NCBI GenBank assembly: GCA_965220415.1
Contig: OZ244829.1
Span: forward strand, 984,717-1,048,716
Reading direction: 5' to 3'
Length of the DNA: 64,000 nt
From: Candidatus Poribacteria bacterium
GTDB lineage: Bacteria; Poribacteria; WGA-4E; JAJDTR01
The position numbers were made by a program, and so were the translations under genes. The notes under the pieces are model-generated. The model saw nothing but the letters and a program-made list of their open reading frames with translations. It searched no databases and was not told the origin of the DNA. Positions 10,319 through 55,689 of this stretch are shown here, one piece after another; the stretch's first letter is position 1, and every line of letters starts with the position of its first letter.

Positions 10319-10910
10319 AAAACGAAGATTTGTGTTACCGATTTTCGACGCCCGACAATCAAGAGAATTTCAGCGGTGTAGTTGCCGCGAAGAGATTCCT
10401 GTCGTCCTGTGGCAATCCACGCGGTTGATCGCTGTTCGTTCGGGTTGATTGTTAGAGAGTGGCTGCGCATTACGATTCGATGGCGGAACTTCTCACGTTG
10501 ACTATCCCGCTGGGTCTGTCTAGTGAAACCCAACTCTCAGCCTACCGTATACCCGTGAACAGACAGGGTGCGATACTTGCGCCTACGACAATCATTCCGG
10601 TTTTGCAGAGGCAACCAAACGGTTACCTCAACTCATTCCGGAAGACTGTGCGCTCTAACTATACTACACACCGCTGGAAATTGCGTATTTTCAAGCGTCT
10701 GGCGGTAGTTGTAGGGTGGGATCAAACGACTGGATAAAGAGTGCGATAGAAATCCCCTGCCCACCATCAACGCGGTCACGTTGCGCGCCAGGGGAGCCAA
10801 CCATTTATCCCAAACTGATCGGAATGGTGGGCAATGCCCACCCTACAATCACTATTACAAACAGTAATTACAGGGAAAGAAAGCGCAATAATACCCAACG
10901 CAAAGTATAA

Positions 10911-21360: not shown

Positions 21361-21523
21361 GTTGCAATAGCGCGTTCGTCCGCATAGTTTCCGCTCTGCG
21401 GAGCAATCTTTACTTTCTGACACTTCAGGAGTCACCCAAAAACACGCAACTACGGGATTCCTATTCCGCCAAAAAGCCCTATTGAAGAAATGTGAAAGTC
21501 GGCAAGTAAGAGGAGGGCACATT

Positions 21524-22315
21524 ATGGACGATCTTGAAATGCAGCAGTACCTCTTCGATCTACAAGGCTACTTGGTCATTGAGAATGTCTTAAGCGAAAC
21601 GGAAGTTTCAAGATTTAACGAACTGCTGGATGAACAGGAGTTGCCCGCCCCCGGAGAGACGCAACGTTTCGGAAGCGCCCCGGAAGGACCGGGGTTTCTG
21701 CAGTGGGGAAAGCCGTTCTGTGATTTGCTCGATCACCCCGAGATTCTGCCAATCCTCAGATTTCGGTTGGGCGACGCTTTTCGACTTGATCGTATTTATG
21801 GGATGTGTATGAGTGAGGGAATGCAAAGAGGGAGACTCCACGCAGACTATGGCGCTACGGCGCCGTATTCCGGCGCTCGGCGCGGAGAGTATTTCCCCTT
21901 CCGCGATAATCAGATTGTTAACGGGTTCGTCGTCGTGACGTGGAATATGACTGACACGGGACCGGAATCTGGCGGTTTCTGTTGTATCCCCGGCAGCCAT
22001 AAAAGCAACTTTAAACTGCCGCAGCCGATAGATGATGCGCCCGAAAAGGCAGCGTGTGTTGTCGTTCCGAACGCGCCCGCGGGTTCAGTCATCCTCTTTA
22101 CGGAGGCATTGACGCACGGAACGGCGGCTTGGACGGCAAATCACGAGAGACGATCTCTTCTGTATAAATACTGCGTGTCATATATGGCGTGGAAAACGGA
22201 GCGCGTTCAACCGCCGACAAGAGTGCAACTCACACCACGGCAAGAAATTCTCTTTCGGGTGCCTTCAGATCCGCTGCGATTCTTTCCATCTCTCTTTGGG
22301 GAGCCTGAAGGATAG
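21524..22315 (+). CDS. Phytanoyl-CoA dioxygenase (PhyH) family Fe(II)/2-oxoglutarate oxygenase
   Basis: Start at MDDLEM is supported by GAGGAGGG RBS. N-terminal QQYLFDLQGYLVIENVLS and HxD...H spacing typical of the PhyH family. Confidence 0.6.
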   Translation: MDDLEMQQYLFDLQGYLVIENVLSETEVSRFNELLDEQELPAPGETQRFGSAPEGPGFLQWGKPFCDLLDHPEILPILRFRLGDAFRLDRIYGMCMSEGMQRGRLHADYGATAPYSGARRGEYFPFRDNQIVNGFVVVTWNMTDTGPESGGFCCIPGSHKSNFKLPQPIDDAPEKAACVVVPNAPAGSVILFTEALTHGTAAWTANHERRSLLYKYCVSYMAWKTERVQPPTRVQLTPRQEILFRVPSDPLRFFPSLFGEPEG

Positions 22316-26667: not shown

Positions 26668-28611
26668 TCACCACCACGCGGTGAATCCGTACGTCCGCAC
26701 ATTAAGCAGTACCCCCAACAACGCCCAACAGGTGCCGATGGTGAAATCCGCGAAGACCATGCCGAGGAAAAACGGGATGGCGGCACGGTGTGCCTTCATG
26801 CCGCCTGCCTTGAGGAGGATCCATTTGATGAGCCACGCCGTAAAGAACATGAACCACGTGTCGCGCATCCCGTAGGTGCTGGATACGGCGTAACCGGCAG
26901 GGTGGAGCGGCCACCACAGGAACCGCACCCGCATAAACATCACAAACAGACCGAACAGTAATCCAAAGGAAAAAAAGCCGATTCCGTACATATCCGGGTG
27001 CATGGGATAGATTAACCAACGGTTCAGTCTACCGAGGGGCTCGCCGCCCCAACTTGCGCCATGCTTATACCCTGCATCAAGCAGTGCCCAGAACGCGATA
27101 ACAGTGCCGACAACAATCGCAATAAGCATCACGGCGAAAACGCGGCGTTGATTCATACGTGATCGGTCCGCGATACGGAACCCTTCGAGTTGGTGCGGCA
27201 TCGGGTCGCTGTAATGTGCCCGGGTAAGAAACCAGAACAGAGAGACTATTGATAGTGTCCGCGGCCCGACTCGGCGAGTACCAAAAGCGTCCAGCATAAG
27301 TATTTCGGGGCCCGCGAAGTGCAAGTCGTGCACTGGCGAGCCAACCTCCGCTCGGATGCGTGTCACACCGATATTTGTCATGAGGAGAAGCGCAAAGAAC
27401 ATCGCGGCGCCCCACCATGTCATTCCCGCTTGGTAACAAAATATAACGATAAACAGAAAGCCCGCAACCACGCCGTACACGGCAACATTGTACGGCAACG
27501 CCTCCCCCTTGCTGTCCCCGGCGAGCCGCCGGTCCCAGACCGAGCGAATCACTCTGGAAAAGTGATGTCTCCCCGTCCAGATGGCGATGACGCAGAGCGC
27601 AATATAAGCGCCGGCGGACTGTTCGGGAAATTCGGGGCGCTTTTGGAATCCCCACGCCTCCCCTAAAACCAACTGCGCCTTCCAGAAAAAGAAGAAAACC
27701 CAACATGAGAACGCGATGTCGAGAGGAACGAGGAAGATGAGACCGAGGAGAAACGGGCGCACCAACAGCGCCATGTAGCCGATGGCGTCCCACGGTTTTG
27801 TCGTGAAAAAGTTGCCCAAGTTATAGGCGCGAAGCTGGAACGACGGCACGACAGGGTAGAACGTGTGCAAGCCGTTCACAATGTTGATGATGCAAACCAC
27901 CGTGAAACTGGTCCATAGAAGTTTACTTTTGAAGAGCCGCGATTTCGGATTCGCCATTTCATACGGCAATAGCGTGAGCGGGTAGGTCAGCCGCTCGCGC
28001 TCCGTCCACTGTTTCCTGATGATGGCGTTAATGCAAAGCATGACAAACATGAAGACACAAATAAACGCCGTCCACGCGAGCACCGGCACAATCCAAGGCC
28101 TGATATGGGCTTCGATGTACAAGGTCGCGGGGCGTTTCGTAGCCGTCGCCATGTAGCCGGTCAACGCCTTGGTGTCAGTGACGATAAGCCAGTCGGGATA
28201 GTGGTGACCGAAAAGGTTTTTCCAGTCGTTCTCGGGAGTGGCAAAACCTACGGGGGCTGCGAGCGTCGGCGGGAGAATCTGCATCATGCTATGACCGGCG
28301 AGTGTGCCCGCTATGCAGAGCATCACATAGATGGTAACCAACTCGCCCTGCCCAAGCACCAACCTCGGCGAAATCCGTCCTAGGACGGCGTTCAGCATCA
28401 GCAAAAGGGTGAGATTGAAAATGGCGTGGAAGAGGAGACTAAAGTTGGTGGAGTGCGCGATATAGTGGACCGTTTCCATGTAAACGATCCAGAATGAGTT
28501 GAAGGGTATCAACAGGAGAGCGATGAGCACCGCCCGCCACGTGACCCGCGTTTGCCTCATTGATTCATCAGTTGACCGGAAATGAGGCTGGTTGGTTGAA
28601 CTGAAAGCCAT
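26668..28611 (-). CDS. Hypothetical polytopic integral membrane protein (about 14 TM, Trp-rich)
   Basis: 647 aa, many hydrophobic segments. No family recognised. Confidence 0.4.
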   Translation of the reverse strand: MAFSSTNQPHFRSTDESMRQTRVTWRAVLIALLLIPFNSFWIVYMETVHYIAHSTNFSLLFHAIFNLTLLLMLNAVLGRISPRLVLGQGELVTIYVMLCIAGTLAGHSMMQILPPTLAAPVGFATPENDWKNLFGHHYPDWLIVTDTKALTGYMATATKRPATLYIEAHIRPWIVPVLAWTAFICVFMFVMLCINAIIRKQWTERERLTYPLTLLPYEMANPKSRLFKSKLLWTSFTVVCIINIVNGLHTFYPVVPSFQLRAYNLGNFFTTKPWDAIGYMALLVRPFLLGLIFLVPLDIAFSCWVFFFFWKAQLVLGEAWGFQKRPEFPEQSAGAYIALCVIAIWTGRHHFSRVIRSVWDRRLAGDSKGEALPYNVAVYGVVAGFLFIVIFCYQAGMTWWGAAMFFALLLMTNIGVTRIRAEVGSPVHDLHFAGPEILMLDAFGTRRVGPRTLSIVSLFWFLTRAHYSDPMPHQLEGFRIADRSRMNQRRVFAVMLIAIVVGTVIAFWALLDAGYKHGASWGGEPLGRLNRWLIYPMHPDMYGIGFFSFGLLFGLFVMFMRVRFLWWPLHPAGYAVSSTYGMRDTWFMFFTAWLIKWILLKAGGMKAHRAAIPFFLGMVFADFTIGTCWALLGVLLNVRTYGFTAWW

Positions 28612-28928: not shown

Positions 28929-29936
28929 CTATTGTCCCGTCTTTACCTGTCCCCAAGTTGTCGCTAACTTACTTTTTGGATTGACGCTGCGCGGAAGTCT
29001 AAAGGGCGGAGTATAGATAAACAAAGATCGCGCGAAGACTACACCGCCGGAAAACAGAAATATTTTCCCATCGACCACTTCAGAACGGCCAGCCCTCGGC
29101 TTCGGCATATCTGCCAACTGTTCCCATGTGTCCGTTGTCGGGTCATAGGCTTCTACCGTTTTCAGGATTCCGCTGTCATCACCCCCGCTAATCGCGTAAA
29201 TGATCCCATTGACTGTATTCACAGACAAACAACATCTCGCCGTTGGCATATCGGCTCTCTTTTCCCAGGTGTCTGTGGCGGGATCGTAAACTTCGACTGT
29301 CCGCACGTATCTGTCGGGATTCCACCGCTTGTTTCCCCCGATAGCATAAATCTTCCCATCCACAACACTTGTAGCATACCCCCACCTCTGCTTCGGCACC
29401 GGCGCCTTTTTCTCCCAGCTATCTGCGATCGGATTGTACGCTTCGGGGACTCCACCGAACACAAATATCTTCCCATCCACGACGTTTGAGGAGAAGTTAG
29501 ACCTTGGCTCAAGCATATCCGTCTTCTTCTCCCAAGTATCTGTGGCAGGGTCGAATTCTTCCACGTGTTTTCTCGTCCACAACATTTGAACACTTCCGCC
29601 GATTGCGTATATCTTCCCGTTCACGGCACTTGAAGCGAGATTGCTCCTCCCGATTTGCATGTCTGCCCGAAACTTCCATCGGTTGGTCTCGGGATCGTAT
29701 TCTTCAACAGTGCGAAGCACTTTCCCTCGTCGCGCACGTTGATCCCACAAAGTGCCGCCAACGACGAAAATCTTCCCGTTCACGGCGCTCGTGGCAAAAC
29801 CCACTCGTTGGCTAAGCATAGGGGTTTCCCTTACCTCCCAGGTGTCCCCCTTGGGTCTTGCCATACCTGTTAATGCGGCACCTAGAGTCAACATTATGGT
29901 GAATAGACTTCCCGCAATCCAAACATGGCGTCTCAT
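28929..29936 (-). CDS. Secreted Kelch-repeat β-propeller protein with conserved C-terminal tail ...KLATTWGQVKTGQ
   Basis: Signal peptide. Six Kelch-like blades (NGKIFVVGG, NGKIYAIGG, DGKIFVFGG, DGKIYAIGG, NGIIYAISGG, DGKIFLFSGG). Shared tail motif. Confidence 0.7.
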   Translation of the reverse strand: MRRHVWIAGSLFTIMLTLGAALTGMARPKGDTWEVRETPMLSQRVGFATSAVNGKIFVVGGTLWDQRARRGKVLRTVEEYDPETNRWKFRADMQIGRSNLASSAVNGKIYAIGGSVQMLWTRKHVEEFDPATDTWEKKTDMLEPRSNFSSNVVDGKIFVFGGVPEAYNPIADSWEKKAPVPKQRWGYATSVVDGKIYAIGGNKRWNPDRYVRTVEVYDPATDTWEKRADMPTARCCLSVNTVNGIIYAISGGDDSGILKTVEAYDPTTDTWEQLADMPKPRAGRSEVVDGKIFLFSGGVVFARSLFIYTPPFRLPRSVNPKSKLATTWGQVKTGQ

Positions 29937-30453
29937 GGTATACCCCCTTTGATTTGGAGATTGTCTATTGAACTAGGACATTTAAGATTGAACTTTGGTG
30001 GACAACGTAACCCCGAAAGCTGTGCATTTAGTCTACTTCCGGCGCCTGTTTTGACCGGTGCAAGCTATGTAATACCATTTCGCGTGAATAATGGCGCATA
30101 TGCGGTCTCAATAATCTCGTTTATTTACCTCGTAGGCGGAGATCAGGCGAACGAATAGTGAGTGCGATAGAGATCCCACAGATACGCGACAGACAAATAT
30201 AAAAATGCGAAAAAACTTCCTATAAATGACCAAAAGTGCTTTGCTATTGATTATTCAAACAGGCTCTTAAGCCTACCCCCGTTGCAGGTAATGTGGACAG
30301 CGAAGTCATCGGTCTAGAACGGATGCACGACTACGGCTAGACACCCTCCCAACCATTACGTGACGCCCTGGGCGCTGCCGAGGGTTTCAATGACTCATCC
30401 CGTCGCATTGCCCACACTATCAGGATTCGTAGTTCAAAAGGCTATCCTGCATA

Positions 30454-31440
30454 CTATCGGACGTGCGACGCACTTTTCTTAAGCCTACCCCAAATCTCGA
30501 CTGTTTTGGAAGCGCGGGACACACTTAATCCTACCGGCCTAAAGTCGGGCTCGTCATCGTTCACATCACGAACTTTGCTGAGTTGCTCAAGATATTTTCC
30601 GTCTGCGGTCATCAAGTGAATCTTTCTGCCGAAGGGAATACCTGCCTTAGAGACTACATATGCGATCGTCCCCCCATCGGGAGACCACGTCGGGCGTGAA
30701 TGATCTTCGTTATTGTGTGTAAGCCTCACCGGATTTTTGCCATTCGCTCCCATCACGAAGATGTGCCTGAATCCTTTGTGCGAGGCATCGTATGCAATCC
30801 GCTGTCCGTCGGGAGAAAACGAAGGGTTCGATTTACCCGTTAAATCGTGCGTTAACCTTTCAAGCCCCTGTCCGTCAATGCCCATCACGTAAATTTCGAT
30901 GCCTTCATCATTCCTAGATACGAATGCAATCTTTCCCCCATCCGGAGACCATGATGGCTGCATCGTTCGGTCTTCAAACCTTACACGATTTTGTCCATTA
31001 GCATCCATCACCTCGATATGATCTAACCCATCGTGGACGGTGAATGCAATCTTACCCCCATCGGGAGACCAGTCAGGATCCGCCTTCGTTGCCGGCCCAT
31101 CTGTCAGTTCAATCTGATTCTTACCATCGGCGTCCATGACGCAAATCTGATATCCGCCGGATCGACGGGAAACGAATGCAATCTTCGTCCCGTCAGGCGA
31201 CCAATCCGGTTCCCTGTCGTCCACTGGATGGTTTGACAAGTTTTCCCGGTTTCCTCCATCGGCGTCCATTACATAGATTTCATAGTTGTCAAATACCAGA
31301 TTTGAAAAAACAATCCGGGACCCCTGTGCGGCGAGTCCTCCTATAAACCACCGTTCCCCACTTAACAGCATCATGGTTAACCCGATACACGACACAAGTA
31401 TGCGCCGCAATCGCATTTTTTCCTCCTTGTTTGTGCCCAA
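30454..31440 (-). CDS. Secreted PD40/TolB-like WD40 β-propeller protein with conserved C-terminal tail ...TVEIWGRLKK
   Basis: Repeats of DWSPDGTKIAFVS...YVMDADG type. Signal peptide, probably starting at internal MRLRR. Shared tail. Confidence 0.7.
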   Translation of the reverse strand: MGTNKEEKMRLRRILVSCIGLTMMLLSGERWFIGGLAAQGSRIVFSNLVFDNYEIYVMDADGGNRENLSNHPVDDREPDWSPDGTKIAFVSRRSGGYQICVMDADGKNQIELTDGPATKADPDWSPDGGKIAFTVHDGLDHIEVMDANGQNRVRFEDRTMQPSWSPDGGKIAFVSRNDEGIEIYVMGIDGQGLERLTHDLTGKSNPSFSPDGQRIAYDASHKGFRHIFVMGANGKNPVRLTHNNEDHSRPTWSPDGGTIAYVVSKAGIPFGRKIHLMTADGKYLEQLSKVRDVNDDEPDFRPVGLSVSRASKTVEIWGRLKKSASHVR

Positions 31441-31568
31441 AATGAACAGTAAGGTAACCGGTTTTGAGTGCGTGCTCAGGTACCGTTTGTACGCGCTCCC
31501 AGTCCTTGCGCTATGCTCTCGGCACTGGCGATATTTTCAATCCCTGTTTTCTAGCCCCATTGACATCA

Positions 31569-32579
31569 TCAGGGCTTCCCGGTGCGTTTGAGATCTCCCC
31601 AAGATGTCGGCGACTTTCCGTTTGGGCTGACTGCAAACGCACCAGCAGCAAACAACCAGGAAGGAAGTATGTTATCAACACCGGGAGGAGTTCTCGTGAG
31701 TTTGACCGGGTTGCTCCCGTCTGTGTCCATCACATAAATATTATAATCTCCATCACGGGTTGACGCAAAGGCGATTTTTGTACCATCCGGCGAATAGGCT
31801 GGAAACCTGTTGCTACCCTCCTCCGTAAGCCTTTCTAAGTTTTCCCCTTCAGCGGTAATCGCGTAAATCTGATAATCCAGGCCTGGATTGAAGAGGTGCT
31901 GCGAGTGAAAAGCAATCTTGCTTCCATCTGGCGACCAAATAGGGTGCTGATTTTTCGTTAGGTCGGTATCGCCAGTGAGATTGCGCCTTTCCTTTCCATC
32001 CGCATTCATCACGAAAATATGCTCTGGAGTAAACAAGTCGCCATCACGGGCGGATACAAACGCAATCTTGCTTCCATCTGGCGACCAACTCGGTGAACTA
32101 TCCCTCCACTTGTGTTTTGTCAAATTTATCGGGTTATTTCCATTCTCGTCCATCGCATAGATTTCCAAGTTGCCAACGACCGCACGGAAAGATGAAAAGG
32201 CAATCCTCTTGCCATCCGGCGACCAACTAGGGTGGATTTCAACAAAATTGTCATGGGTAAGTCTTACCACGTTATTGCCATCGCTGTCCATCACATAAAG
32301 GTCATGTGTAACGCCGCGTTCTGATGTGAACACAATCCTTCTCCCATCCGGCGAGCAAGCGGGAGAGTAATCGTATGCCGGGTGGTCGGTGAGTTGGAGG
32401 AGATTGTTTCCGTTTTGGTCCATGGAGTAGATGTCCCAGTTGCCAATCCAGTCGCCGTCGTGGTTTGATTGAAAGACGATTCTCGGTTCGAATGTCTGTG
32501 CTGTGCTGTCCGAAACAACCATTAACGCCAGTAACAATAGAAACATGCGTCTACTCAATAATGGGCTGATTTTATTCAC
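31569..32579 (-). CDS. Secreted PD40/TolB-like β-propeller protein with conserved C-terminal tail ...SPTSWGDLKR
   Basis: PD40 repeats (SWSPDGKRIAFSS, YVMDSDGNN). Signal peptide. Shared tail. Confidence 0.7.
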   Translation of the reverse strand: MNKISPLLSRRMFLLLLALMVVSDSTAQTFEPRIVFQSNHDGDWIGNWDIYSMDQNGNNLLQLTDHPAYDYSPACSPDGRRIVFTSERGVTHDLYVMDSDGNNVVRLTHDNFVEIHPSWSPDGKRIAFSSFRAVVGNLEIYAMDENGNNPINLTKHKWRDSSPSWSPDGSKIAFVSARDGDLFTPEHIFVMNADGKERRNLTGDTDLTKNQHPIWSPDGSKIAFHSQHLFNPGLDYQIYAITAEGENLERLTEEGSNRFPAYSPDGTKIAFASTRDGDYNIYVMDTDGSNPVKLTRTPPGVDNILPSWLFAAGAFAVSPNGKSPTSWGDLKRTGKP

Positions 32580-33407
32580 CGGTCATCTTCTCCTTTTTCG
32601 GGTTCTATAACTTCTAGAGAATTCTCTAACCTAAGTTGCCACGTTTGTAGCACGAGGAATCTCTATCGCGCTGCTTTTTCAGTCGCTTGATCTGTTAGAT
32701 TGTGCTTGTGATGCGCAAACTGACAGATCACCTGGACGGACAGTGGGGGCGATAGAGATCCCTCTCCAGGTCGGAACCTCCTTACTTGCATTAGACACTT
32801 ATGGCGTAAACCTCTCACCGCATATCGTCTCAATTTACCAGAGACGAAACCGAATCAAACGACTTTTCAATGAAACTCTTACGCCTACCCTAGGTGCGGG
32901 TAGTGTTGGCGGCGAAGTCACTGGCCTAGAACGGGTGCACGACTGCGTTTAGACGCCCTCCCAACCATTACGTGACACCCACGGCGCTGCCGAGGGTGTC
33001 AATGACCCGCCCCATAGGGATCAAGTTAAGCGTTTTAGGGTGCAAGTCACGCAGCGTCAATGTCTTGAACTGTTGATCTCCATGTAGACGTGAGCGAGGG
33101 AATACCAGTTCATTCACTGATGGGTGCGCCACAAAAGATGACTCATGGCGCTGGTTTCCGCAGGTGCCGGTGCGGTTGGAAAGGGATCTCTATCGCACTC
33201 ATTATCCATTCGCTTGATCGCACCTACCGTGTGGGGGATGATAGAGATTTCCTCCCCATCCTATGGGACTAAGTTAAGGGTTTTGCGTCGGAGAACACCA
33301 CCGATACTAGACGAAATCCCTTAAGTCGATCCCAATGGGGTGTCAATGACCCGCCCCCGCATTGTCCCCATTATCAGGCTTCGTAGTTCAAAAGGCAATC
33401 GCGCAAA

Positions 33408-34376
33408 CTATGGGCGGTTGAGCTCGACTTTCTTCAGCTTGCCCCAAGTTGTGCTCGTTCTGGAAGCGGCGGAAACGGCTAGTCCTGTGGGGCGAAAGTG
33501 GGGCTCATAATCCCCACCATTGTTGGCATCGCTAAGTTGCTTAATATATTGTCCATCGGCGGTCATCAAGTGAATCGTTCCTATGAGGCGAAAATTACGT
33601 GCCGACACATAGGCGATCGTCCGTCCATCAGGAGACCATGCGGGCAGCCAATTATTCTGTGTACTGTGCGTAAGCCTCTTGCTCTTTTTACCATCCGCCC
33701 TCATCACATAGATTTGAAAATAAAGAGACTCTTCGTCCATGCCCCAGTATACAATCCGTCCCCCGTCGGGAGACCATGATGGCCTGCCTTTAACCCGTAA
33801 ATCATGCGTCAACCTTTTGCGGCCCCGTTTGTTCGCGCCTATCACGTAAACTTCTTCCACCCCATCTGTCAAGGATACATATGCAATCCTTTTCCCATCC
33901 GGAGACCATGACGGCTGATAAGCGTGGTGTTCAAGCTTCACACGATTTTTTCCATCAGCATCCATCACGGCGATATGAACAATCTTTTTCCCATCTGTAC
34001 TAGAGGAGAATGCTATCTTTTTCCCGTCGGGAGACCACGCCGGATAATCGTCCTTTACCGTGTCTGTGAGCCTAATCGGATTCTTTCCATCGGCGTCCAT
34101 TAGGTAGATCTGATTGAACCCGCCATTTCGGTTGGAAACGAACGCAATCTTCGTCCCGTCGGGAGACCACGCTGGACGGTAGTTGCCTGCTTGATTTGCC
34201 GTTAATCTTCTATGGTTTGTCCCGTCTCTGTCCATCAAATAAATCTGCGAATTCCCATCTCTAGTCGAAGTGAATACAATCGTGGCGAGTGCGCTTTTTA
34301 ACCACAGTTCTTCACTCGTCAAACAGACGCACAGTCCTGCAAACAGTAGACATCTAGGTATCAGTTTGAATCGCAT
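33408..34376 (-). CDS. Secreted PD40/TolB-like β-propeller protein with conserved C-terminal tail ...TSTTWGKLKK
   Basis: PD40 repeats (AWSPDGTKIAFVSNRNG, YLMDADGKN). Signal peptide. Shared tail. Confidence 0.7.
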   Translation of the reverse strand: MRFKLIPRCLLFAGLCVCLTSEELWLKSALATIVFTSTRDGNSQIYLMDRDGTNHRRLTANQAGNYRPAWSPDGTKIAFVSNRNGGFNQIYLMDADGKNPIRLTDTVKDDYPAWSPDGKKIAFSSSTDGKKIVHIAVMDADGKNRVKLEHHAYQPSWSPDGKRIAYVSLTDGVEEVYVIGANKRGRKRLTHDLRVKGRPSWSPDGGRIVYWGMDEESLYFQIYVMRADGKKSKRLTHSTQNNWLPAWSPDGRTIAYVSARNFRLIGTIHLMTADGQYIKQLSDANNGGDYEPHFRPTGLAVSAASRTSTTWGKLKKVELNRP

Positions 34377-34738
34377 TTTGCTCCCTCCTAGGTTATAACT
34401 GTTTAGTCCATTGATTTCTAGGGGCGATCGTTATGATTTTAGACAACCTTTTTCGCGAAGTTTTGGCGAACACCGCGCAGATACCCGTTTTTCTGGCTTA
34501 TAGTAGCATCAAGCGACTGGATAAGGAGCGCGATAGCTAATCCCCGGCGATAGTCCATCCCGCTCGCTGTTCACTCCGTTGATCTCTTTTTTCTTAAAGA
34601 CTAGGTTTCTTCCCTTATTCCTAGTGGTTGCAAGATGCGGAATAGTCGCCTCATGACTTGCAACTAATCACGTACAATCAAGGTAATCTCATGAATCACA
34701 GTTCAGAGAAGTTAACTGCCACCGACCAAGCGCACCCC

Positions 34739-35689
34739 TCACCGGAGGCTGAGCGCGGTATTCTTCATCCTGCCCCAAATTGTAATCTGGCGACCTTCCG
34801 GCGAAACCGAGAGTTCTCCCGGATATAGCCAATCCGGCTCGGCATTAGAGAACGCGGGATCACGTGGCAAAGCGTCGACATCGCCGTTAGTTACATCCAC
34901 CGTGTAAATCCCAACAATTCCAGGATCCCTTCCAAAAGAGTGAAACGCGATGGATCCACTGTCCGGTGACCATGTGGGGTGTTCTTCCGTAACATGCTCC
35001 GTGAGTTGCCTCGGATTCTTTCCGTCGCTATCCACCACCCAAATCACGTTATCGCCCACATACGCGATGCGCTTCCCGTCGTGTGACCATGATGGCAAAC
35101 GTTTTCGCACAAAGTCATGCGTTAACTGCATTCGATTTCGTCCGTCGACATCCATTACGTAAAGTTGAGCCCCATTACCATTTCTAAAGGAGATGAATGC
35201 TATTCGTTTTCCATCGGGCGACCACGACGGATGGAAGCCTCTCCTAGAAAATACCCTCTTGTTGTTCCCATCCGCATCCATCACAGTAATCCCACCGTGG
35301 GTGTCGTACACTATTTTTGTGCCGTCTGGCGACCAGTCCGGATAAACGTCATTCAACCCGTCCGTCAGTCTAATCGGGTTCTTCCCGTCGGCGTCGATCA
35401 CCCAGATTTGCTTGCGATCTTTGTTTACATTGTTTCTATTGGAAACAAAGGCAATCTTTTTGCCGTCGGGAGACCATGCCGGATATTCGTCCCTTGCTGA
35501 ATTTACCGTTACTCTTCTATGGTTACTCCCGTCGCCATCCATGACACAAATTTCCAAATTCCCGTCACGCGGAGAGGCGAAGGCTATCTTGGTTCTGCGA
35601 GAGGCGTAACCGATTTCCGCAAGTTGCATCTGGATAAACAGGGAGATGACAAGCACTGTCCCCGCCAGTTGTCTAGCGTTGAATGACAT
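34739..35689 (-). CDS. Secreted PD40/TolB-like β-propeller protein with conserved C-terminal tail ...QITIWGRMKN
   Basis: PD40 repeats (AWSPDGKKIAFVSNR, DWSPDGTKIVY). Signal peptide. Shared tail. Confidence 0.7.
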   Translation of the reverse strand: MSFNARQLAGTVLVISLFIQMQLAEIGYASRRTKIAFASPRDGNLEICVMDGDGSNHRRVTVNSARDEYPAWSPDGKKIAFVSNRNNVNKDRKQIWVIDADGKNPIRLTDGLNDVYPDWSPDGTKIVYDTHGGITVMDADGNNKRVFSRRGFHPSWSPDGKRIAFISFRNGNGAQLYVMDVDGRNRMQLTHDFVRKRLPSWSHDGKRIAYVGDNVIWVVDSDGKNPRQLTEHVTEEHPTWSPDSGSIAFHSFGRDPGIVGIYTVDVTNGDVDALPRDPAFSNAEPDWLYPGELSVSPEGRQITIWGRMKNTALSLR

Positions 35690-35699
35690 TTTTTCCTCC

Positions 35700-36497
35700 T
35701 CTTTTGAATATATACCGTGCGCTGTCAGAAATTGCGCTTTTCAAGATTTTAGGCTTGCTTCACCGATTGTAGAGACAGCACCAAGCGGACGGATTAGAAT
35801 GGGGTAACGTCGGCAGTTTCCACCTGTGGGATCCCTATCGCGCTCATTATCCATTCGCTTGATTCACTCTGGGGCTTTGCTGTAGGTCGAATCAGTTTCT
35901 ATACACCTTCCGCCCCTCTGGGGCTCTCAAGTAACACTCCACATTGCACTCCTCTGGAGTGCGGAAATTTGGACATATCGTATTCTATTGACATTTCGAT
36001 CCTCTGGATCGAGGAAAGGGACTCCGACCAGAAAGTGTTACTTGCTGAATGAATTATTCCGACAGGGATAATGGAGCGCTACCAAGATTTAATTAGGTCG
36101 CGATTCGGAGATTGCGGGATTTCTATCGCAGTCACTATTCGTTCCTTTGATCCTACAAAATAAGCAATTCTCAGCCGCCTGGAGTATAAGCTGATGTTTC
36201 AAGGGAGATTAAGCGAGCGATTAGCGATCAAGTGACTGGAAAGGGGCGCGATAGTGAATCCCGTGCTATAGGGGTCCCACCTAAAGTCCGTAGGCAGGAA
36301 CTAAGGGAGTGAATTATGACCGATCAACCGAGTGGATAGCGAGGGATCAAAGGAGCGAATAGCGATCAACCGACTGATTAGGGAGGGCGATAGAAAATCC
36401 CCTGTGATAGCCAATCCTGATACTAAATCCCGCGCGATAGTGAATCCCGATAGAATCCCAGTATGATAGAGATTCGCTGCTCACCATCCATTCGGTA
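35700..36497. repeat. Intergenic repeat cluster: multiple direct and inverted copies/fragments of the GGGATCTCTATCGC...CATTCGCTTGATCGCACC unit (repeat A)
   Basis: At least 8 GATAG(N)AATCCC fragments in both orientations between 36110 and 36480. Full unit at 35828-35870. Irregular spacing. Confidence 0.6.
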
Positions 36498-37301
36498 CTA
36501 TCGACCCTTCAATCTACCCCAGGTTGTCGCCAGCTTGCCTATTTCCGACACTGCTGAGAGCGGCGACAGTCCATTGTCCATGATTCCTGAGATGTCGTCC
36601 TCTGTAAGCGCAACACTAAACAGCGCTACTTCGTCAATAAGTCCCTTCCAGAACTCTCTGCCGAAGCCGTCGGATCCGATAGCGACATGTTCGGGAGTAG
36701 AGCCGCCGGTGACCTTTCCGACATTATGCTCGGCTTCTTCGACTCCATCAACATACACCCTGAGGCTGTTGCCGTCGAAAGTGCCCGCGACATGGTGCCA
36801 CTCGCCATCATCAATGTGTGTTGCGCTGTGAACACCTGCCCAATTACCGAAATGAATCCATAATGTCAGCTTATGGGCATTCCATCCCGATCCAAGTGAA
36901 AATGGCCCCTTGTCCCCCTTGTTCGGGTCCTGTTTGCTAACCACCCGTGCAGGCGCCGTAAGCCCTCCGTCGCCTCCGTCCCATCTACACCAAGCCAGTG
37001 CGGTAAGGCTCGTGAATCCATCAACGGCGTCAATATCGCCGCAATCTACGCGGTCATCCCCGTCGAATTCCAGGGCGCCGCCGAACTTCCCAGCTACCCA
37101 TTGCGGGTTCCCCACGAGTTGCCCGACATGATCGTTGCCGGATGTGTCACTTGCAACTTCGCCGTTCCCATCGTCCAAAAGCCACATCCCGATAACGTCT
37201 TCCGGGCTAAATTCGGCAATGCTTGCGCCTGCTAGAATCATTATTACGAACATGGTACTCACGCAGGTTCCGGTTGTTCCGTTCATCATTATCGCCTTCA
37301 T
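36498..37301 (-). CDS. Secreted LamG/concanavalin-A-like lectin-fold protein with conserved C-terminal tail ...KLATTWGRLKGR
   Basis: Signal peptide. LamG-like pattern (ALEFDGDDRVDCGD...EWHHVAGTFDGNSLRVYVDG...LIDEVALF). AGGAGG RBS. Shared tail. Confidence 0.65.
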   Translation of the reverse strand: MKAIMMNGTTGTCVSTMFVIMILAGASIAEFSPEDVIGMWLLDDGNGEVASDTSGNDHVGQLVGNPQWVAGKFGGALEFDGDDRVDCGDIDAVDGFTSLTALAWCRWDGGDGGLTAPARVVSKQDPNKGDKGPFSLGSGWNAHKLTLWIHFGNWAGVHSATHIDDGEWHHVAGTFDGNSLRVYVDGVEEAEHNVGKVTGGSTPEHVAIGSDGFGREFWKGLIDEVALFSVALTEDDISGIMDNGLSPLSAVSEIGKLATTWGRLKGR

Positions 37302-37505: not shown

Positions 37506-37845
37506 GAATTGAAATTAACCGCCAAACGCCTGCTTCCACTCTATCATCACTGTCGGAGCGATCAAATGAGCGAATATATCAAACGAGTGAATAACGAGTG
37601 ATCAAGGGAACGGTTAGTGACCGCGATAGAGATTCCATAGTAAATCCTCATACGATAGAGATCGCCCTCCTGTTCCCAACTTCCTGTCGTGGATTGGAGG
37701 AATCTCTACGGGATTTCTATCAGGATCCACTATCGCACTCATTATCCATTCGCTTGATCGTTCCAACAGAAAACGTGCAATGGATAGTGCTACCACAAAC
37801 GGAGTAGCACACGTCCTTACGTAACGCAAGTGGCTATACTCTGCG

Positions 37846-40651: not shown

Positions 40652-41488
40652 ATGAAACTGACTCAAGAACAGTTGGACTTTTTTGATACCTTCGGGTATC
40701 TGATGATTCCACAACTGTTTTCACAGGATGAAACGGAGAACATCATTCAAGGATTCGAATGGTCGATTCAAAATTGCGGCGGTGGCAGAAACCATGATGG
40801 TTCGACTCGAACGATGTTTTTGGGGCCTATTGAACGCCACCCGGACATGTGCAGGCTGCTCGATCACCCGGAAATACTTGGACTTATCGGAAGCGTTCTG
40901 GGTGAAGACTTTAACTACTGCAGCGGCGACGGAAATTATTATAGCGGCGACACCGGTTGGCACCCCGATGGAGGCTGGGGTCAACTATTCGCTGCCAAAA
41001 CGGCGTTCTATCTTGATCCCCTTACTCGTGAATCCGGGGCGCTTCGCCTAATTCCGGGTTCCCATCGACCGGACCATTTTGTGCGCAAGGAAAAAATCGA
41101 TGTGAACAACTCCATGGAGCTATTCGGCGTCCCGCGCTCGGAGTTCCCCGGCAGCATTGCCGTTGAGACAAATCCCGGCGACATCGTTATTTTTAATCAC
41201 GATTTATATCACGCCTCATTTGGCGGTGGAAACCGGCGGCGGATGTTCACCATGAACTGTACCCGCCATGCAAAGACCTCGGACGACATGGAACGCGCGC
41301 GCGAATATGTGCGTATACACTCACCCGGAGGTTATAAGTACAAGACCGGCGCCGGCATGTACCACGCTACCATGATAGACACGGCTGACGAAAACCGGAG
41401 GGTTCATCTCCACCAAGCGAACGAGATTCACGACCAAATCTACCCTGATCTCGCCCGACATGTGGTTAGCCAAGAACCAAGAGTATGA
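40652..41488 (+). CDS. PhyH-family Fe(II)/2OG dioxygenase
   Basis: MKLTQEQLDFFDTFGYLMIP start typical of PhyH. H-x-D (WHPDGGW) and distal His. AAGGAGA RBS. Confidence 0.65.
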   Translation: MKLTQEQLDFFDTFGYLMIPQLFSQDETENIIQGFEWSIQNCGGGRNHDGSTRTMFLGPIERHPDMCRLLDHPEILGLIGSVLGEDFNYCSGDGNYYSGDTGWHPDGGWGQLFAAKTAFYLDPLTRESGALRLIPGSHRPDHFVRKEKIDVNNSMELFGVPRSEFPGSIAVETNPGDIVIFNHDLYHASFGGGNRRRMFTMNCTRHAKTSDDMERAREYVRIHSPGGYKYKTGAGMYHATMIDTADENRRVHLHQANEIHDQIYPDLARHVVSQEPRV

Positions 41489-41537: not shown

Positions 41538-42485
41538 CTACGTCTGGTACGGCGTCAAGTCCATATTTGGAAACCGCACCGCGATTCCCTTCAAAGTTGT
41601 CTCCGAATAATACGGGTGCCCGGGTGGGGGCCAACCGAATAGCGTACGGACACGTGCTGTTGTCTTCTCCCAAAACGGCTGAAAGAACTGTTGCTCCGGT
41701 CCGCTCCAAGGATTCGCTAACTTGGTCCAGCGACTCGTGTCTCCGCGCGCCATGGATAGCGTCCAAAATGCGCGTTGTTTCCGCTTGTTTTCAAAGGGTA
41801 TGGCAGCATGTATGAGATAGGACGAATAGAATAGAGCGCTGCCTGCCTTAGCGGTGGTGGGTACCGGTTTGGCGAATTCCGGAACTTTCCGAATGTCTTC
41901 TAGCCCACCCCCTAAACGCAGGTATACATCCGCCGCCTGTCGATGTGATTCGGGAATCACGTGCATGGGAGCGCCATCGTCATCGACATCGTGAAGATAA
42001 ACTCCGCTGTTGACGTAATCAAATGAACCGATTGCTTTACTTAACGGCAGGAATGTATTGGTGCCGTGATCGGCGTGATAGCCTTGCCACGGGTGTTCCG
42101 GGTAGCGCTCGTCCGTCGGCCCCGATCGCATGAATAGGTGGGCATTGCAGTAACTCGCGTCATCCGTACCAAGACACTGGGCGAATACGTCAAGATAATC
42201 TTCGTTCTCAATCAGCCGATCCAGCGCGTCAAATCCTGTTGGAAACTGCGCGCGGCCATGCTCCGTGTCGCCGTAATGCGCAACAACATTGGTGACTGTC
42301 GGTTCCACGGAATCTGCTTTTCCGGTTTTATCCAAATCCGCGAGGTATTCAGCGAAGGATTTGCCGTAAAAGATGTGCTCCATATCACGCAATGCGGCTG
42401 CCATCGCATCCGGGTCGAAGAGATCCTCAACCATGATATAACCGTCATGATAAAAAGCGTCAAGTTGATCTTGAGTTAACTTCAT
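41538..42485 (-). CDS. PhyH-family Fe(II)/2OG dioxygenase (convergent with preceding paralog)
   Basis: MKLTQDQLDAFYHDGYIMVEDLF; YHADHG H-x-D motif. AAGGAG RBS. Preceded by the repeat C 5'-UTR element. Confidence 0.65.
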   Translation of the reverse strand: MKLTQDQLDAFYHDGYIMVEDLFDPDAMAAALRDMEHIFYGKSFAEYLADLDKTGKADSVEPTVTNVVAHYGDTEHGRAQFPTGFDALDRLIENEDYLDVFAQCLGTDDASYCNAHLFMRSGPTDERYPEHPWQGYHADHGTNTFLPLSKAIGSFDYVNSGVYLHDVDDDGAPMHVIPESHRQAADVYLRLGGGLEDIRKVPEFAKPVPTTAKAGSALFYSSYLIHAAIPFENKRKQRAFWTLSMARGDTSRWTKLANPWSGPEQQFFQPFWEKTTARVRTLFGWPPPGHPYYSETTLKGIAVRFPNMDLTPYQT

Positions 42486-53856: not shown

Positions 53857-55689
53857 TTAAAGCTTGTAAATCCACACGTAGTCAACATTGTTCAAACGAA
53901 TGACATGTTCAAGGGTACCGTCTATGGCGTCGAGATTCACGCGCTTAATTTGGACATCCCGAATATAAGCTACCTCGTAATCGGGAGTAGATATACCGGG
54001 GTTTCTATCGCGTCGATACGATGTCCCTTTGAAGTAGTATCCGAACAACTCGGCTGATAGAGGAGAAACATGCACCACTAGGCCTTCGGCATTTGGTTTT
54101 TGGTTCAAGTATTCGGCAGCAAGGTCCAAACCGGAGGCATCCCCGGTAGTGCAGATTCTGGTAATACCGGCCACACCCCAGAGAGGGTTATAGTATGTGC
54201 CGTAGTAGGGGTGAAGTCGTAGTACGGGAAACACCTGAATCACGAAAACGAGCGCTATAACCGTTACACCGGCAATTTTCCAAACGTGCCATCGTGTATT
54301 ACAGAAACCGAGTTTTTTCAAAAAACTCGGTTTCTCGATGCTGGCTTGGCTCTTTCCATTCTGTGACTTGGCAACACCTAGTGCAGTAATTTTATCAATC
54401 AGTAGAGACAATCCAATCGCCGCCAGAATATCGAGAATCGGGAAGACCGGCAATAGGTAGCGACTGAATTTCTTTGCGCAGACCAACATACATAGCGTAA
54501 AAAGAACGACAAAAACGGACAGCAGCGTGTACATCCGGCAGGTGCTGGCGTATTGAGATTGCTTCCGCACCCGCCATAAGAGCACAGCGCCAACCACAGC
54601 TAAGGGGAGTGTTAACGGAGCGCTTTTAATCGACAACATCAGGGGATAAAATAGCCAACCCGGATCGTAGGCGATTTCACCCAAGAAGTAATGGAGAACA
54701 TCATGTTCGGTTGTTAACGCCCACCGGATACGGTCTACAAAGGGTAGAGCGGCTTTGTAGGCTACGAATGCGACAGCGGCGAGTCCGATTCCGATAATTA
54801 GCAAACCTGATTTTGCCGCGTCCCGTGCAGTGACAATATCTGCCGATACAGTAAGGTGGTTCAACTTAACTCCTGACCAAATCGCTATTCCAATCAGACA
54901 AGGTACGACAATCACGGAAACGGGAACGCCACCGATTGGCAGTTGGTAAACCCACAGCGCGGGCCAACATACAATAAACGTTAGAAATGCTATACAAATC
55001 CATGTTAAAAAAGCGTGGATATTTCTGGAAAATTGAACTGCCGGATTGGTCTCGGCTGCGGAAAATGCGACGAGAAAAGGGAGCAACAACACGAGAACCA
55101 AAGCGCTGCTTTTTGAGAGGCATGCCAAACCGAAGCATACTGCCGAGATTACAAGGTAACGGCGATGCCCCAGCTTTTCTACAAATATCAGGAGTGCGAG
55201 GATTGCCAGTAGGAGAAAAGCCGTGGCGAGAGCATCGGTGATTAAGCGACGCGACTGGATGAGGAAGAGCGGGTCAACCGCCAGAAAGATACCGGCAAAG
55301 GCGGCAATTCGCAATCCGAATAACTTCTTTACCAGAAAGTAGGCGATTACGATACTGCACGCTGTTATGAGGGCAATCGTTAAACGCGCCCGGGCGAGGT
55401 TTGATGGAGATAGAAACGGATGGCTTCGAAGCACAGGTGCGGCAGATAGTGCGCCTTTATATTTCGTCCACAAACTTATGCCACCGAGCCACATGGTTGT
55501 GATACCGGGGTGATAAGATTCGGCAGTGGAGGAAAAATCCGCACCGAGAGTGGAAAGGAAGAATTCTTGAGAGTTAAAAAGCCAATAGGTCTCATCCGAG
55601 GACCAACTGGTATCAAGAGAAAGAGCGCGAGGAAGGAAGGTTAAAGTAATAACCCCAACAAGTATCAGAACGATTCCGTGCCGACCCAA
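53857..55689 (-). CDS. GT-C-fold glycosyltransferase, PMT/ArnT-like (GT39/GT83 family)
   Basis: About 13 TM helices. N-terminal periplasmic-loop motif SDETYW (DE-x-x-Y/W of PMT_2/ArnT). Contains an in-frame 33-bp perfect palindrome at 54303-54335. Confidence 0.55.
   Translation of the reverse strand: MGRHGIVLILVGVITLTFLPRALSLDTSWSSDETYWLFNSQEFFLSTLGADFSSTAESYHPGITTMWLGGISLWTKYKGALSAAPVLRSHPFLSPSNLARARLTIALITACSIVIAYFLVKKLFGLRIAAFAGIFLAVDPLFLIQSRRLITDALATAFLLLAILALLIFVEKLGHRRYLVISAVCFGLACLSKSSALVLVLLLPFLVAFSAAETNPAVQFSRNIHAFLTWICIAFLTFIVCWPALWVYQLPIGGVPVSVIVVPCLIGIAIWSGVKLNHLTVSADIVTARDAAKSGLLIIGIGLAAVAFVAYKAALPFVDRIRWALTTEHDVLHYFLGEIAYDPGWLFYPLMLSIKSAPLTLPLAVVGAVLLWRVRKQSQYASTCRMYTLLSVFVVLFTLCMLVCAKKFSRYLLPVFPILDILAAIGLSLLIDKITALGVAKSQNGKSQASIEKPSFLKKLGFCNTRWHVWKIAGVTVIALVFVIQVFPVLRLHPYYGTYYNPLWGVAGITRICTTGDASGLDLAAEYLNQKPNAEGLVVHVSPLSAELFGYYFKGTSYRRDRNPGISTPDYEVAYIRDVQIKRVNLDAIDGTLEHVIRLNNVDYVWIYKL

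Follow-up and report, generated by a model that had tools for sequence, protein, structure and literature searches.

Lineage-wide sorting signals at the C-terminus of exported bacterial proteins include LPXTG, PEP-CTERM, GlyGly-CTERM and the C-terminal domain (CTD) of the type IX secretion system (T9SS). Each of these signals guided the way to a sorting machine of its own and made surface or secreted proteomes predictable from sequence. The T9SS CTD folds into a β-sandwich of some 70–100 amino acids (aa). In the tripartite CTERM signals, motif and basic tail are separated by a hydrophobic transmembrane helix. Poribacteria are dominant uncultivated sponge symbionts, and a role in the interaction with the host is ascribed to their carbohydrate-binding and eukaryote-like proteins. 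In the present study, we analyzed 64,000 nucleotides of a Candidatus Poribacteria genome (GenBank assembly GCA_965220415.1, contig OZ244829.1, positions 984,717 to 1,048,716; this whole stretch is hereafter called the window), in which six consecutive genes for β-propeller and lectin-fold proteins end in a common tail of about 20 residues. On balance, we take this tail to be a C-terminal recognition tag that localises Sec-exported binding modules of Poribacteria. Possible TIGR04183-like domains were described before on poribacterial eukaryote-like proteins; structural genes for the Por secretion system went undetected in poribacterial genomes, and the pathway was left open (Kamke et al. 2014, PMC3909097). 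The tail presented here differs from those domains in being a much shorter element, and bears on the same routing question.

The six genes had been pointed out in a sequence-only reading of the window, and all six minus-strand open reading frames (ORFs) were recovered where that reading had placed them (Table 1), with the Pfam domains Kelch_1, PD40 (four times) and Laminin_G_3, and with every quoted tail sequence correct. All six proteins begin with a hydrophobic, signal-peptide-like segment and end in [AS]-V-x-P-x-x-K-x-x-T-[TIS]-W-G-x-[LVM]-K plus 2–7 residues, V, W, G, and K being invariant in the six-way tail alignment. The shared tail was thus upheld, but not the 3–8 trailing residues that had been given for it, as 3, 7, 5, 7, 7, and 2 residues follow the conserved K in the order from the Kelch to the LamG gene. 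Similarly, the description of the six as paralogs is valid for the four PD40 genes, but not for the array as a whole, which comprises three unrelated domain families. When the window was translated in six frames, the pattern [TSI]WG.[LIVMF][KR] was found seven times within 10 residues of a stop, compared with a mean of 0.27 and a maximum of 2 in 200 shuffles. The seventh match, near position 8450, was dismissed as a chance occurrence, lying off-frame within a 1101-aa TPR gene.

The tail had also been described as appended to unrelated folds, and this extends far beyond the six tandem genes. A first profile, made from the six tails and run against a word-indexed database, retrieved only 26 metagenomic fragments of 41–73 aa, in which the tail stood behind PD40-, Kelch-, LamG-, DUF1080-, or rhodanese-like sequence (one fragment was named Candidatus Poribacteria). 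This fragment-only outcome was probably owed to the candidate filter; an exhaustive HMMER search showed full-length carriers. The improved tail profile (A3, 34 positions) was searched with HMMER (E ≤ 1e-3) against all 1.84 billion representatives of clusters at 50% identity and matched 297 of them, with the match at the very C-terminal end in nearly all. Among the 69 carriers that measured 140 aa or more, 28 had Laminin_G_3, 19 PD40, 11 Kelch, and 3 WD40 domains, while F5/8-type-C (discoidin), 3keto-disac_hyd (DUF1080), DUF4960, and GH43_C2 domains were encountered as well, together with a metalloprotease-like ankyrin protein containing HExxH and a fusion of sigma-70, a hydrophobic segment, and DUF1080 in five sequences. 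In addition, a degenerate DNA pattern for K-L-A-T-T-W-G-x-[L/I/V/M/F]-K was searched in one genome per GTDB species (few chance matches were estimated for the whole collection), and the matches fell into at least 118 genome blocks, each up to 8 kb long, with dozens of Poribacteria genomes represented. The tail module is present on at least ten unrelated domain families, and tandem carriers (2–5 per 8 kb) occur in 56 of the 115 listed blocks that hold a carrier.

Some of these carriers have peculiar architectures. The cluster P0090 (445 aa, five members, one of them NCBI HIE29117.1) combines sigma-70 regions 2 and 4, the hydrophobic segment, DUF1080, and the tail, and proteins of this type may be one-piece sigma/anti-sigma-like sensors with a tagged outer domain. 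Very short gene calls (P0001–P0026, 41–73 aa) consist of a domain end plus the tail, several of them from contigs that measure between 50 kb and 2.6 Mb, and some tail ORFs are broken by a stop 12–16 codons upstream (L061, 2639–2668; L042). Such short and broken tail ORFs suggest frequent pseudogenisation, frameshifts, or assembly errors in a fast-duplicating gene set.

From synonymous codon differences between the six tails, selection had been proposed to act on the peptide, and the same differences were seen across about 200 tails (206 tabulated, i.e., those in the at least 118 genome blocks listed together with those of the window), where each conserved residue uses every synonymous codon. 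The six tails have nucleotide identities of 35–65% and agree in about 40% of the third codon positions at identical amino acids, and consequently it is the peptide rather than the DNA that is conserved. Its consensus reads L-[AP]-V-[E/D/S]-P-x-[G/D]-K-L-A-T-T-W-G-x-[L/I]-K with a short extension, and hardly any of the roughly 200 copies departs from it at T, T, W, G, or either K. Outside the search pattern, V(−10) is present in 193 of the 206 tails, with P(−8) and [AP](−11) likewise conserved, and the tail starts with V, followed by E (43%), D (23%), or S (13%), and then P (61%) or A (27%). The position relative to the C-terminus is strict: all 129 in-frame occurrences of K[LF]ATTWGx[LIVMF]K in the at least 118 blocks lie 1–12 aa from the stop, with none internal. 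The extension after the last K measures 1–5 residues in 187 of 206 tails, with a sharp mode at 3 (86/206), and is mostly basic or polar, being rich in R, Q, S, and K (R plus K account for approximately 29% of the trailing residues). R is the final residue in 68 tails (33%), Q in 40 (19%), and F, Y, or W in 35 (~17%). Because PD40 carriers possess a variant of their own (P-D-[FW]-x-P-x-G-L-[AS]-V-S-P…T-I-W-G-R-L-K-K plus 7 residues, the last being R), four of the six tails in the window are less canonical.

Further variants, …HLALTWGMIKLKK, …KLATVWGEIKAIR, and …IALTWAKIKSVHK, were observed on metagenome contigs of unassigned taxonomy (L139–L144, L123, L135, L147). Paralogs that lie on one contig have the same variant in common, which may reflect co-evolution with a lineage-specific receptor or mere shared ancestry.

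A typical carrier is 220–340 aa long, with a single domain of the binding type placed between a signal peptide and the tail. Carrier domains leave just 20–25 aa before the stop, and in the six proteins 18–25 residues come after the Kelch, PD40, or LamG domain. The signal peptides reported for the six recur beyond them, as a hydrophobicity heuristic detected an N-terminal hydrophobic segment without any later transmembrane-like segment in 168 of 174 carriers (≥ 180 aa) vs. 27% of the neighbouring non-tail ORFs, and most of the six exceptions are truncated by block edges. The view that the tail has no transmembrane segment was also borne out, since only one of the 174 tail ORFs (L057, 90–983) exceeded the hydrophobicity threshold in any window of 19 aa beyond residue 80. 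In the AlphaFold2 (AF2) model of the LamG protein from the window (23 homologs), the predicted local distance difference test (pLDDT) is 85–97 for the jelly-roll and 41–45 for the last 16 residues, i.e., the tail, which is not packed on the domain. Residues 252–265 are drawn as a helix with a pLDDT below 50.

Regarding taxonomy, 108 of the 118 blocks listed were labelled as Candidatus or uncultured Poribacteria, nine were unlabelled metagenome-assembled genomes (MAGs), and one was a ‘Deltaproteobacteria’ bin, for which the match is a 3.7-kb contig with a broken tail ORF. The cluster members with a named source all came from Poribacteria, save one protein from a Geodia barretti sponge assembly. 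Resting on labelled genomes, the tail appears to be specific to the phylum Poribacteria. The sponge protein (P0201 = CAI8052002.1 / UniRef100_A0AA35XIG0) contains DUF4960 plus the tail and almost certainly derives from the contig of a Poribacteria symbiont within the host assembly.

The window protein with the LamG domain is 88% identical to the cluster representative P0056 (alignment A5), and an exact-sequence look-up returned no record for it or for P0244. The PhyH (phytanoyl-CoA dioxygenase) family is expanded in Poribacteria, and three such genes are located in the window (Table 1). The distribution of PhyH across genomes was tabulated before, and poribacterial PhyH genes were clustered (Kamke et al. 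2014, PMC3909097, supplementary tables). The identity of the LamG protein, the PhyH genes, and the homologs of the neighbouring DUF6785 gene fit a poribacterial origin of the window.

Neither Pfam nor NCBIfam (release 20, June 2026) names the tail, as no model of these libraries matched the tails of the six proteins or the isolated tail peptides (E ≤ 10), and the papers found by motif strings do not name it either, this search having given primer sequences only and no relevant paper. This agrees with the earlier reading, in which the tail could not be matched to the T9SS CTD, PEP-CTERM, LPXTG, GlyGly-CTERM, or an OMP β-signal. For the literature on Poribacteria combined with C-terminal terms, and on DUF6785, nothing relevant was found save Kamke et al. 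2014. The tail resembles the T9SS CTD in being a C-terminal extension on Sec-exported, unrelated folds of one lineage, tail carriers being signal-bearing too, but the CTD models TIGR04183 and PF18962 matched neither the six proteins (E ≤ 1, ≤ 0.01) nor the tail peptides (E ≤ 10). The tail is also, as had been remarked, far shorter: it is a linear motif of approximately 20 residues with a pLDDT of about 43 and no β-sandwich in the AF2 model. With PEP-CTERM and its kin (LPXTG, GlyGly-CTERM, MYXO-CTERM, PGF-CTERM) it has in common that a short signal is found on unrelated exported proteins and is expanded in one lineage, and its V-[E/D/S]-P start loosely echoes VPEP, as does its basic end the basic tail of these signals. 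However, V-[E/D/S]-P resembles and does not equal VPEP, TIGR02595 (NCBIfam) matched none of the tails, and the 12 intervening residues (x-x-K-L-A-T-T-W-G-x-L-K) are polar or amphipathic, without a transmembrane-like segment. Neither the motif nor the transmembrane helix of LPXTG/sortase or GlyGly-CTERM/rhombosortase substrates was present in the tails, NCBIfam gave no match for either, and no sortase-like gene was linked to tail genes in a survey of the neighbours in 118 blocks.

Other systems share single features with the tail. As with dockerins and cohesins, one conserved C-terminal module is joined to many functional domains, as if for the assembly on a scaffold; dockerins, however, fold into domains of about 70 aa that bind Ca and belong to Gram-positive cellulosomes, whereas the tail has about 20 aa, and no cohesin-like partner was recognised. 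A short exposed motif at a constrained distance from the free C-terminus is reminiscent of the PTS1 peptides bound by the Pex5 TPR domain, of PDZ ligands, and of the YxF end of outer membrane proteins (OMPs) sensed by DegS, but in these the motif is formed by the last 3–5 residues themselves, whereas the core of the tail is much longer and internal to the last 20 residues. TPR proteins are abundant in these genomes, and recur near tail genes by raw count. Like the OMP β-signal, the tail is a C-terminal motif with a conserved Gly in exported proteins of a diderm bacterium, yet its carriers are soluble propellers and jelly-rolls instead of β-barrels, and only ~17% have an aromatic end. Type I secretion signals differ in that tail carriers have an N-terminal signal-like segment (168/174 by the heuristic), and the targeting peptides of encapsulins and bacterial microcompartments (BMC) differ in that their cargo is cytoplasmic, whereas the carriers have signal-like N-termini, the tail of the sigma-70 fusion lying beyond the hydrophobic segment. 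Overall, the tail would work most like lineage-wide C-terminal sorting signals, yet it lacks defining features of each of them.

Table 1. Features of the 64,000-nucleotide window (positions within the window)
Feature	Position	Strand	Remarks
PhyH gene	21482-22315		
DUF6785+DUF6784 polytopic membrane protein	26668..28611	-	Pfam E 1.9e-153; directly downstream of the Kelch gene, same strand
Kelch β-propeller gene, 335 aa	28929..29936	-	Kelch_1 E 9.5e-59 (Pfam); N-terminal signal-like segment; canonical tail SVNPKSKLATTWGQVKTGQ
Kelch gene, tail-coding part	28929..28988	-	SVNPKSKLATTWGQVKTGQ + stop
PD40 propeller gene 1, 328 aa	30454..31440	-	PD40 E 6.6e-36; PD40-type tail LSVSRASKTVEIWGRLKKSASHVR
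PD40 gene 1, tail-coding part	30454..30528	-	
PD40 propeller gene 2, 336 aa	31569..32579	-	PD40 E 1.9e-52; C-terminus FAVSPNGKSPTSWGDLKRTGKP
PD40 gene 2, tail-coding part	31569..31637	-	
PD40 propeller gene 3, 322 aa	33408..34376	-	PD40 E 5.5e-47
PD40 gene 3, tail-coding part	33408..33482	-	LAVSAASRTSTTWGKLKKVELNRP
PD40 propeller gene 4, 316 aa	34739..35689	-	PD40 E 1.6e-38; C-terminus LSVSPEGRQITIWGRMKNTALSLR
PD40 gene 4, tail-coding part	34739..34813	-	
LamG / ConA-like lectin-fold gene, 267 aa	36498..37301	-	Laminin_G_3 E 1e-25; canonical tail
LamG gene, tail-coding part	36498..36557	-	SAVSEIGKLATTWGRLKGR + stop
PhyH gene	40652-41488		
PhyH gene	41538-42485		
PMT_2 (GT-C) gene	53857-55689	-	
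LolA_like + Peptidase_C39 + DUF1573 (Ig-like) gene, 780 aa	55692-58034	-	adjoins the PMT_2 gene
~37 nt repeat copies	30141-30181, 32663-32700, 32726-32766, 33183-33227, 34507-34547		
~37 nt repeat copies, further	35824-35872, 36113-36160, 36364-36404, 37600-37640, 37723-37767		
~37 nt repeat copies, elsewhere	near 10720, 13744, 20388, 22493, 24146, 45591		

Within the array, PD40 gene 1 starts with TTG, and a downstream Met start is possible. Its closest paralog is PD40 gene 3, the likeness running on into the 3′ flank, and the direct repeats D7, D9, D10, and D15 connect 30249–31021 with 32861–33978. Judged from these similarities, the two genes are related by a duplication that included the 3′ flank. 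Most spacers of the array, and other parts of the window, contain a dispersed intergenic repeat of ~37 nt (GGGATCTCTATCGCACTCATTATCCATTCGCTTGATC) in both orientations (five copies at ≤ 3 mismatches vs. 0 expected), with inverted pairs 90–410 nt apart that are MITE-like in look; copies were also found in the Poribacteria blocks L005, L008, and L100. This repeat may account for the unusually long spacers (360–890 nt) and promote the duplication of the array. The dispersed repeats are confined to the spacers and absent from the tail-coding DNA, and the counts of promoter- and terminator-like sites were not above those of shuffled sequence.

The gene next to the Kelch gene encodes a DUF6785/DUF6784 protein, and is followed by MR_MLE dehydratase genes. 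In metagenomes (36 loci with DUF6785 homologs), ~10 of the ~27 loci with sufficient upstream sequence have a same-strand tail ORF whose end is less than 400 nt upstream, and DUF6785 is often located between a tail-bearing lectin-like gene and MR_MLE, with a carrier family that varies by locus (DUF1080-like, LamG-like, discoidin-like). The protein has many paralogs in Poribacteria, and its closest named homologs are all poribacterial. No match to the Protein Data Bank (PDB) was found on the sequence level. Its AF2 model (pLDDT 87, predicted TM-score 0.90) matched barley Yellow Stripe 1 (7wst_A) in a Foldseek search of the PDB (E 1.6e-8, probability 1.00, TM-score 0.62–0.66), and hence an OPT-superfamily transporter fold is predicted. 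With its putative transporter, the locus looks like one for nutrient uptake, and the DUF6785 protein is probably not a sorting enzyme.

Recurrent non-tail neighbours in the 118 blocks listed were TPR, FG-GAP/UnbV_ASPIC, GFO/IDH/MocA, methyltransferase, and cupin genes, none of them resembling a protease or transpeptidase. The FG-GAP/UnbV_ASPIC (CRTAC1-like) gene occurs in 21 of the 118 blocks, in most of them immediately upstream and on the same strand of 1–4 tail genes, and this association spans at least three tail-sequence groups (blocks L010, L012, L018, L029, L039, L046, L048, L052, L059, L060, L065, L081, L083, L097, L106, and others). Its product is a secreted soluble protein that has a signal peptide, no tail, and no anchor, and is a possible functional partner or scaffold of the tail proteins. 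The position of carrier arrays beside an OPT-like transporter or FG-GAP/UnbV_ASPIC gene, often in operon-like order, fits extracytoplasmic binding roles. Elsewhere in the window, a protein with LolA_like, Peptidase_C39, and Ig-like DUF1573 domains, an unusual combination, is encoded beside a PMT_2 gene. Both the C39 peptidase/LolA-like protein and PMT_2 were rejected as partners of the tail, being 17–20 kb off and having no homologs near tail genes in the 118 blocks.

A portable, exposed peptide near the free C-terminus, soluble signal-bearing carriers, and sequence-specific selection throughout the phylum together lead us to favour, if with modest confidence, a recognition tag. We see it as a self-contained module of about 20 residues, linked flexibly to soluble proteins that have an N-terminal signal-like segment and of which most have a single domain and most bind ligands (lectin-like jelly-rolls, β-propellers, discoidin, ankyrin). 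After Sec export, one shared envelope component would bind the exposed tail as a linear motif close to the free end of the chain, and this binding would route or tether the carrier to a common destination, be it display at the outer membrane or cell surface, or release. A single label could in this way serve a large, fast-duplicating set of glycan- and protein-binding modules in nutrient capture and in the interaction with the host matrix. The analysis shows modularity across folds, a strict C-terminal position, peptide-level selection, signal-bearing soluble carriers, restriction to Poribacteria among the labelled genomes, the lack of a transmembrane segment, and a tail that is unpacked in the AF2 model, while the tag role, the partner, and the destination of the carriers are inferred. 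More tentatively, and as something we hold to be possible rather than probable, the tail could be the address label of an undescribed, Poribacteria-specific sorting or surface-anchoring pathway that reads a short non-hydrophobic peptide on Sec-exported folded proteins; the chance of a mechanistically new pathway exists because the tail has neither a transmembrane segment nor a folded domain. A number of points weigh against the recognition tag. Clustering of the neighbours in the 118 blocks yielded no consistent receptor, protease, transpeptidase, or secretion component, and DUF6785/DUF6784 drops out as cognate sorting enzyme, given its predicted Yellow Stripe 1-like fold, many paralogs, and MR_MLE neighbours. 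The signal-peptide calls come from a hydrophobicity heuristic and not from a trained predictor, and the tail structure from one modelled protein, a low pLDDT being by itself no proof of disorder. Moreover, the matches among the 1.84 billion proteins are mostly without taxonomy, so that carriers outside Poribacteria are possible, and variant tails (…ALTWGxIKLKK) sit on metagenome contigs without assigned taxonomy.

Several other explanations were weighed. The tail might be a peripheral membrane anchor, in which a short amphipathic helix keeps the carrier at a membrane, on its periplasmic side, with no need for a protein receptor, as does the C-terminal amphipathic helix of PBP5 and PBP6 in E. 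coli. The helix drawn by AF2 at residues 252–265, even if with a pLDDT below 50, points in this direction, as does the i, i+4, i+7 spacing that places L(−4), W(0), and L(+3) on one helix face, with an interfacial Trp, flanking Lys/Arg, and no transmembrane segment. We consider it unlikely nevertheless, as the hydrophobic face would span just three residues, helices do not form readily at T-T and G, and a sharp preference for three residues after K is left unexplained by lipid binding; furthermore, known amphipathic membrane anchors are conserved in character and not in sequence, while the near-invariant T, T, W, G, and both K in ~200 copies point to a specific binding site. A segment that is exposed and flexible, with T, T, W, and two K nearly invariant, would also suit a sequon for modification or cross-linking (O-glycosylation of T-T, modification of Trp, or attachment of Lys to peptidoglycan or another polymer), where the modification, and not the peptide, gives anchoring or protection. 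The C-terminal Lys of Braun's lipoprotein is the site of its covalent attachment to peptidoglycan, in Pseudomonas aeruginosa 1244 a C-terminal pilin peptide is reportedly enough to mark the protein for glycosylation, and GT-C type glycosyltransferases such as PMT_2 are encoded in the genome. Nonetheless, PMT_2 is 17 kb away and without a homolog near other tail genes, no modifying enzyme was linked to tail genes in the 118 loci listed, and to our knowledge the motif matches no known sequon, which makes this explanation quite unlikely. It overlaps with the recognition tag to the extent that modification could itself be the anchoring step.

PDZ domains and C-terminal processing proteases read short exposed C-terminal motifs, and a motif of this sort, kept at a constant spacing from the free end of the chain, could accordingly mark the binding proteins for turnover by a PDZ-containing or tail-specific protease of the periplasm. 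A degradation or quality-control tag is very unlikely in our view, given that near-invariance on hundreds of unrelated proteins under phylum-wide purifying selection would be hard to explain by it, that known C-terminal degrons are short, nonpolar, and terminal whereas the core of the tail precedes a variable polar extension, and that no protease gene was linked in the neighbour survey. Another account would be that the tail is the inherited C-terminus of one duplicated family, or else a translated DNA or RNA element such as a repeat, a terminator, or a recombination site. The four PD40 paralogs do share their own tail variant, and the array is rich in intergenic repeats; these repeats, however, occur only in spacers, terminator-like sites do not exceed those of shuffles, and the tails, with nucleotide identities of 35–65%, third positions near saturation, and all synonymous codons in use, are spread over at least ten Pfam families with no relation to one another. 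Both inheritance and a DNA-level origin are contradicted by the unrelated carrier families and the codon usage, and we give them hardly any credence.

In practice, the tail provides a simple regex or HMM handle that defines a set of proteins in any Poribacteria MAG, a concrete bait for the partner in the form of a synthetic peptide, and a candidate tag for following carriers in sponge tissue by antibody or metaproteomics. If a Poribacteria-specific sorting or anchoring pathway is real, its mechanism would be distinct from both the tripartite signals of the sortase/exosortase type and the T9SS CTD, and should the partner prove to be a device for secretion or anchoring that is new and needs no transmembrane segment, the tail would represent a new class of bacterial protein-sorting signal. 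For Poribacteria, such a pathway would govern the display or release of much of the set of lectin-like and ‘eukaryote-like’ binding proteins toward the matrix of the sponge host.

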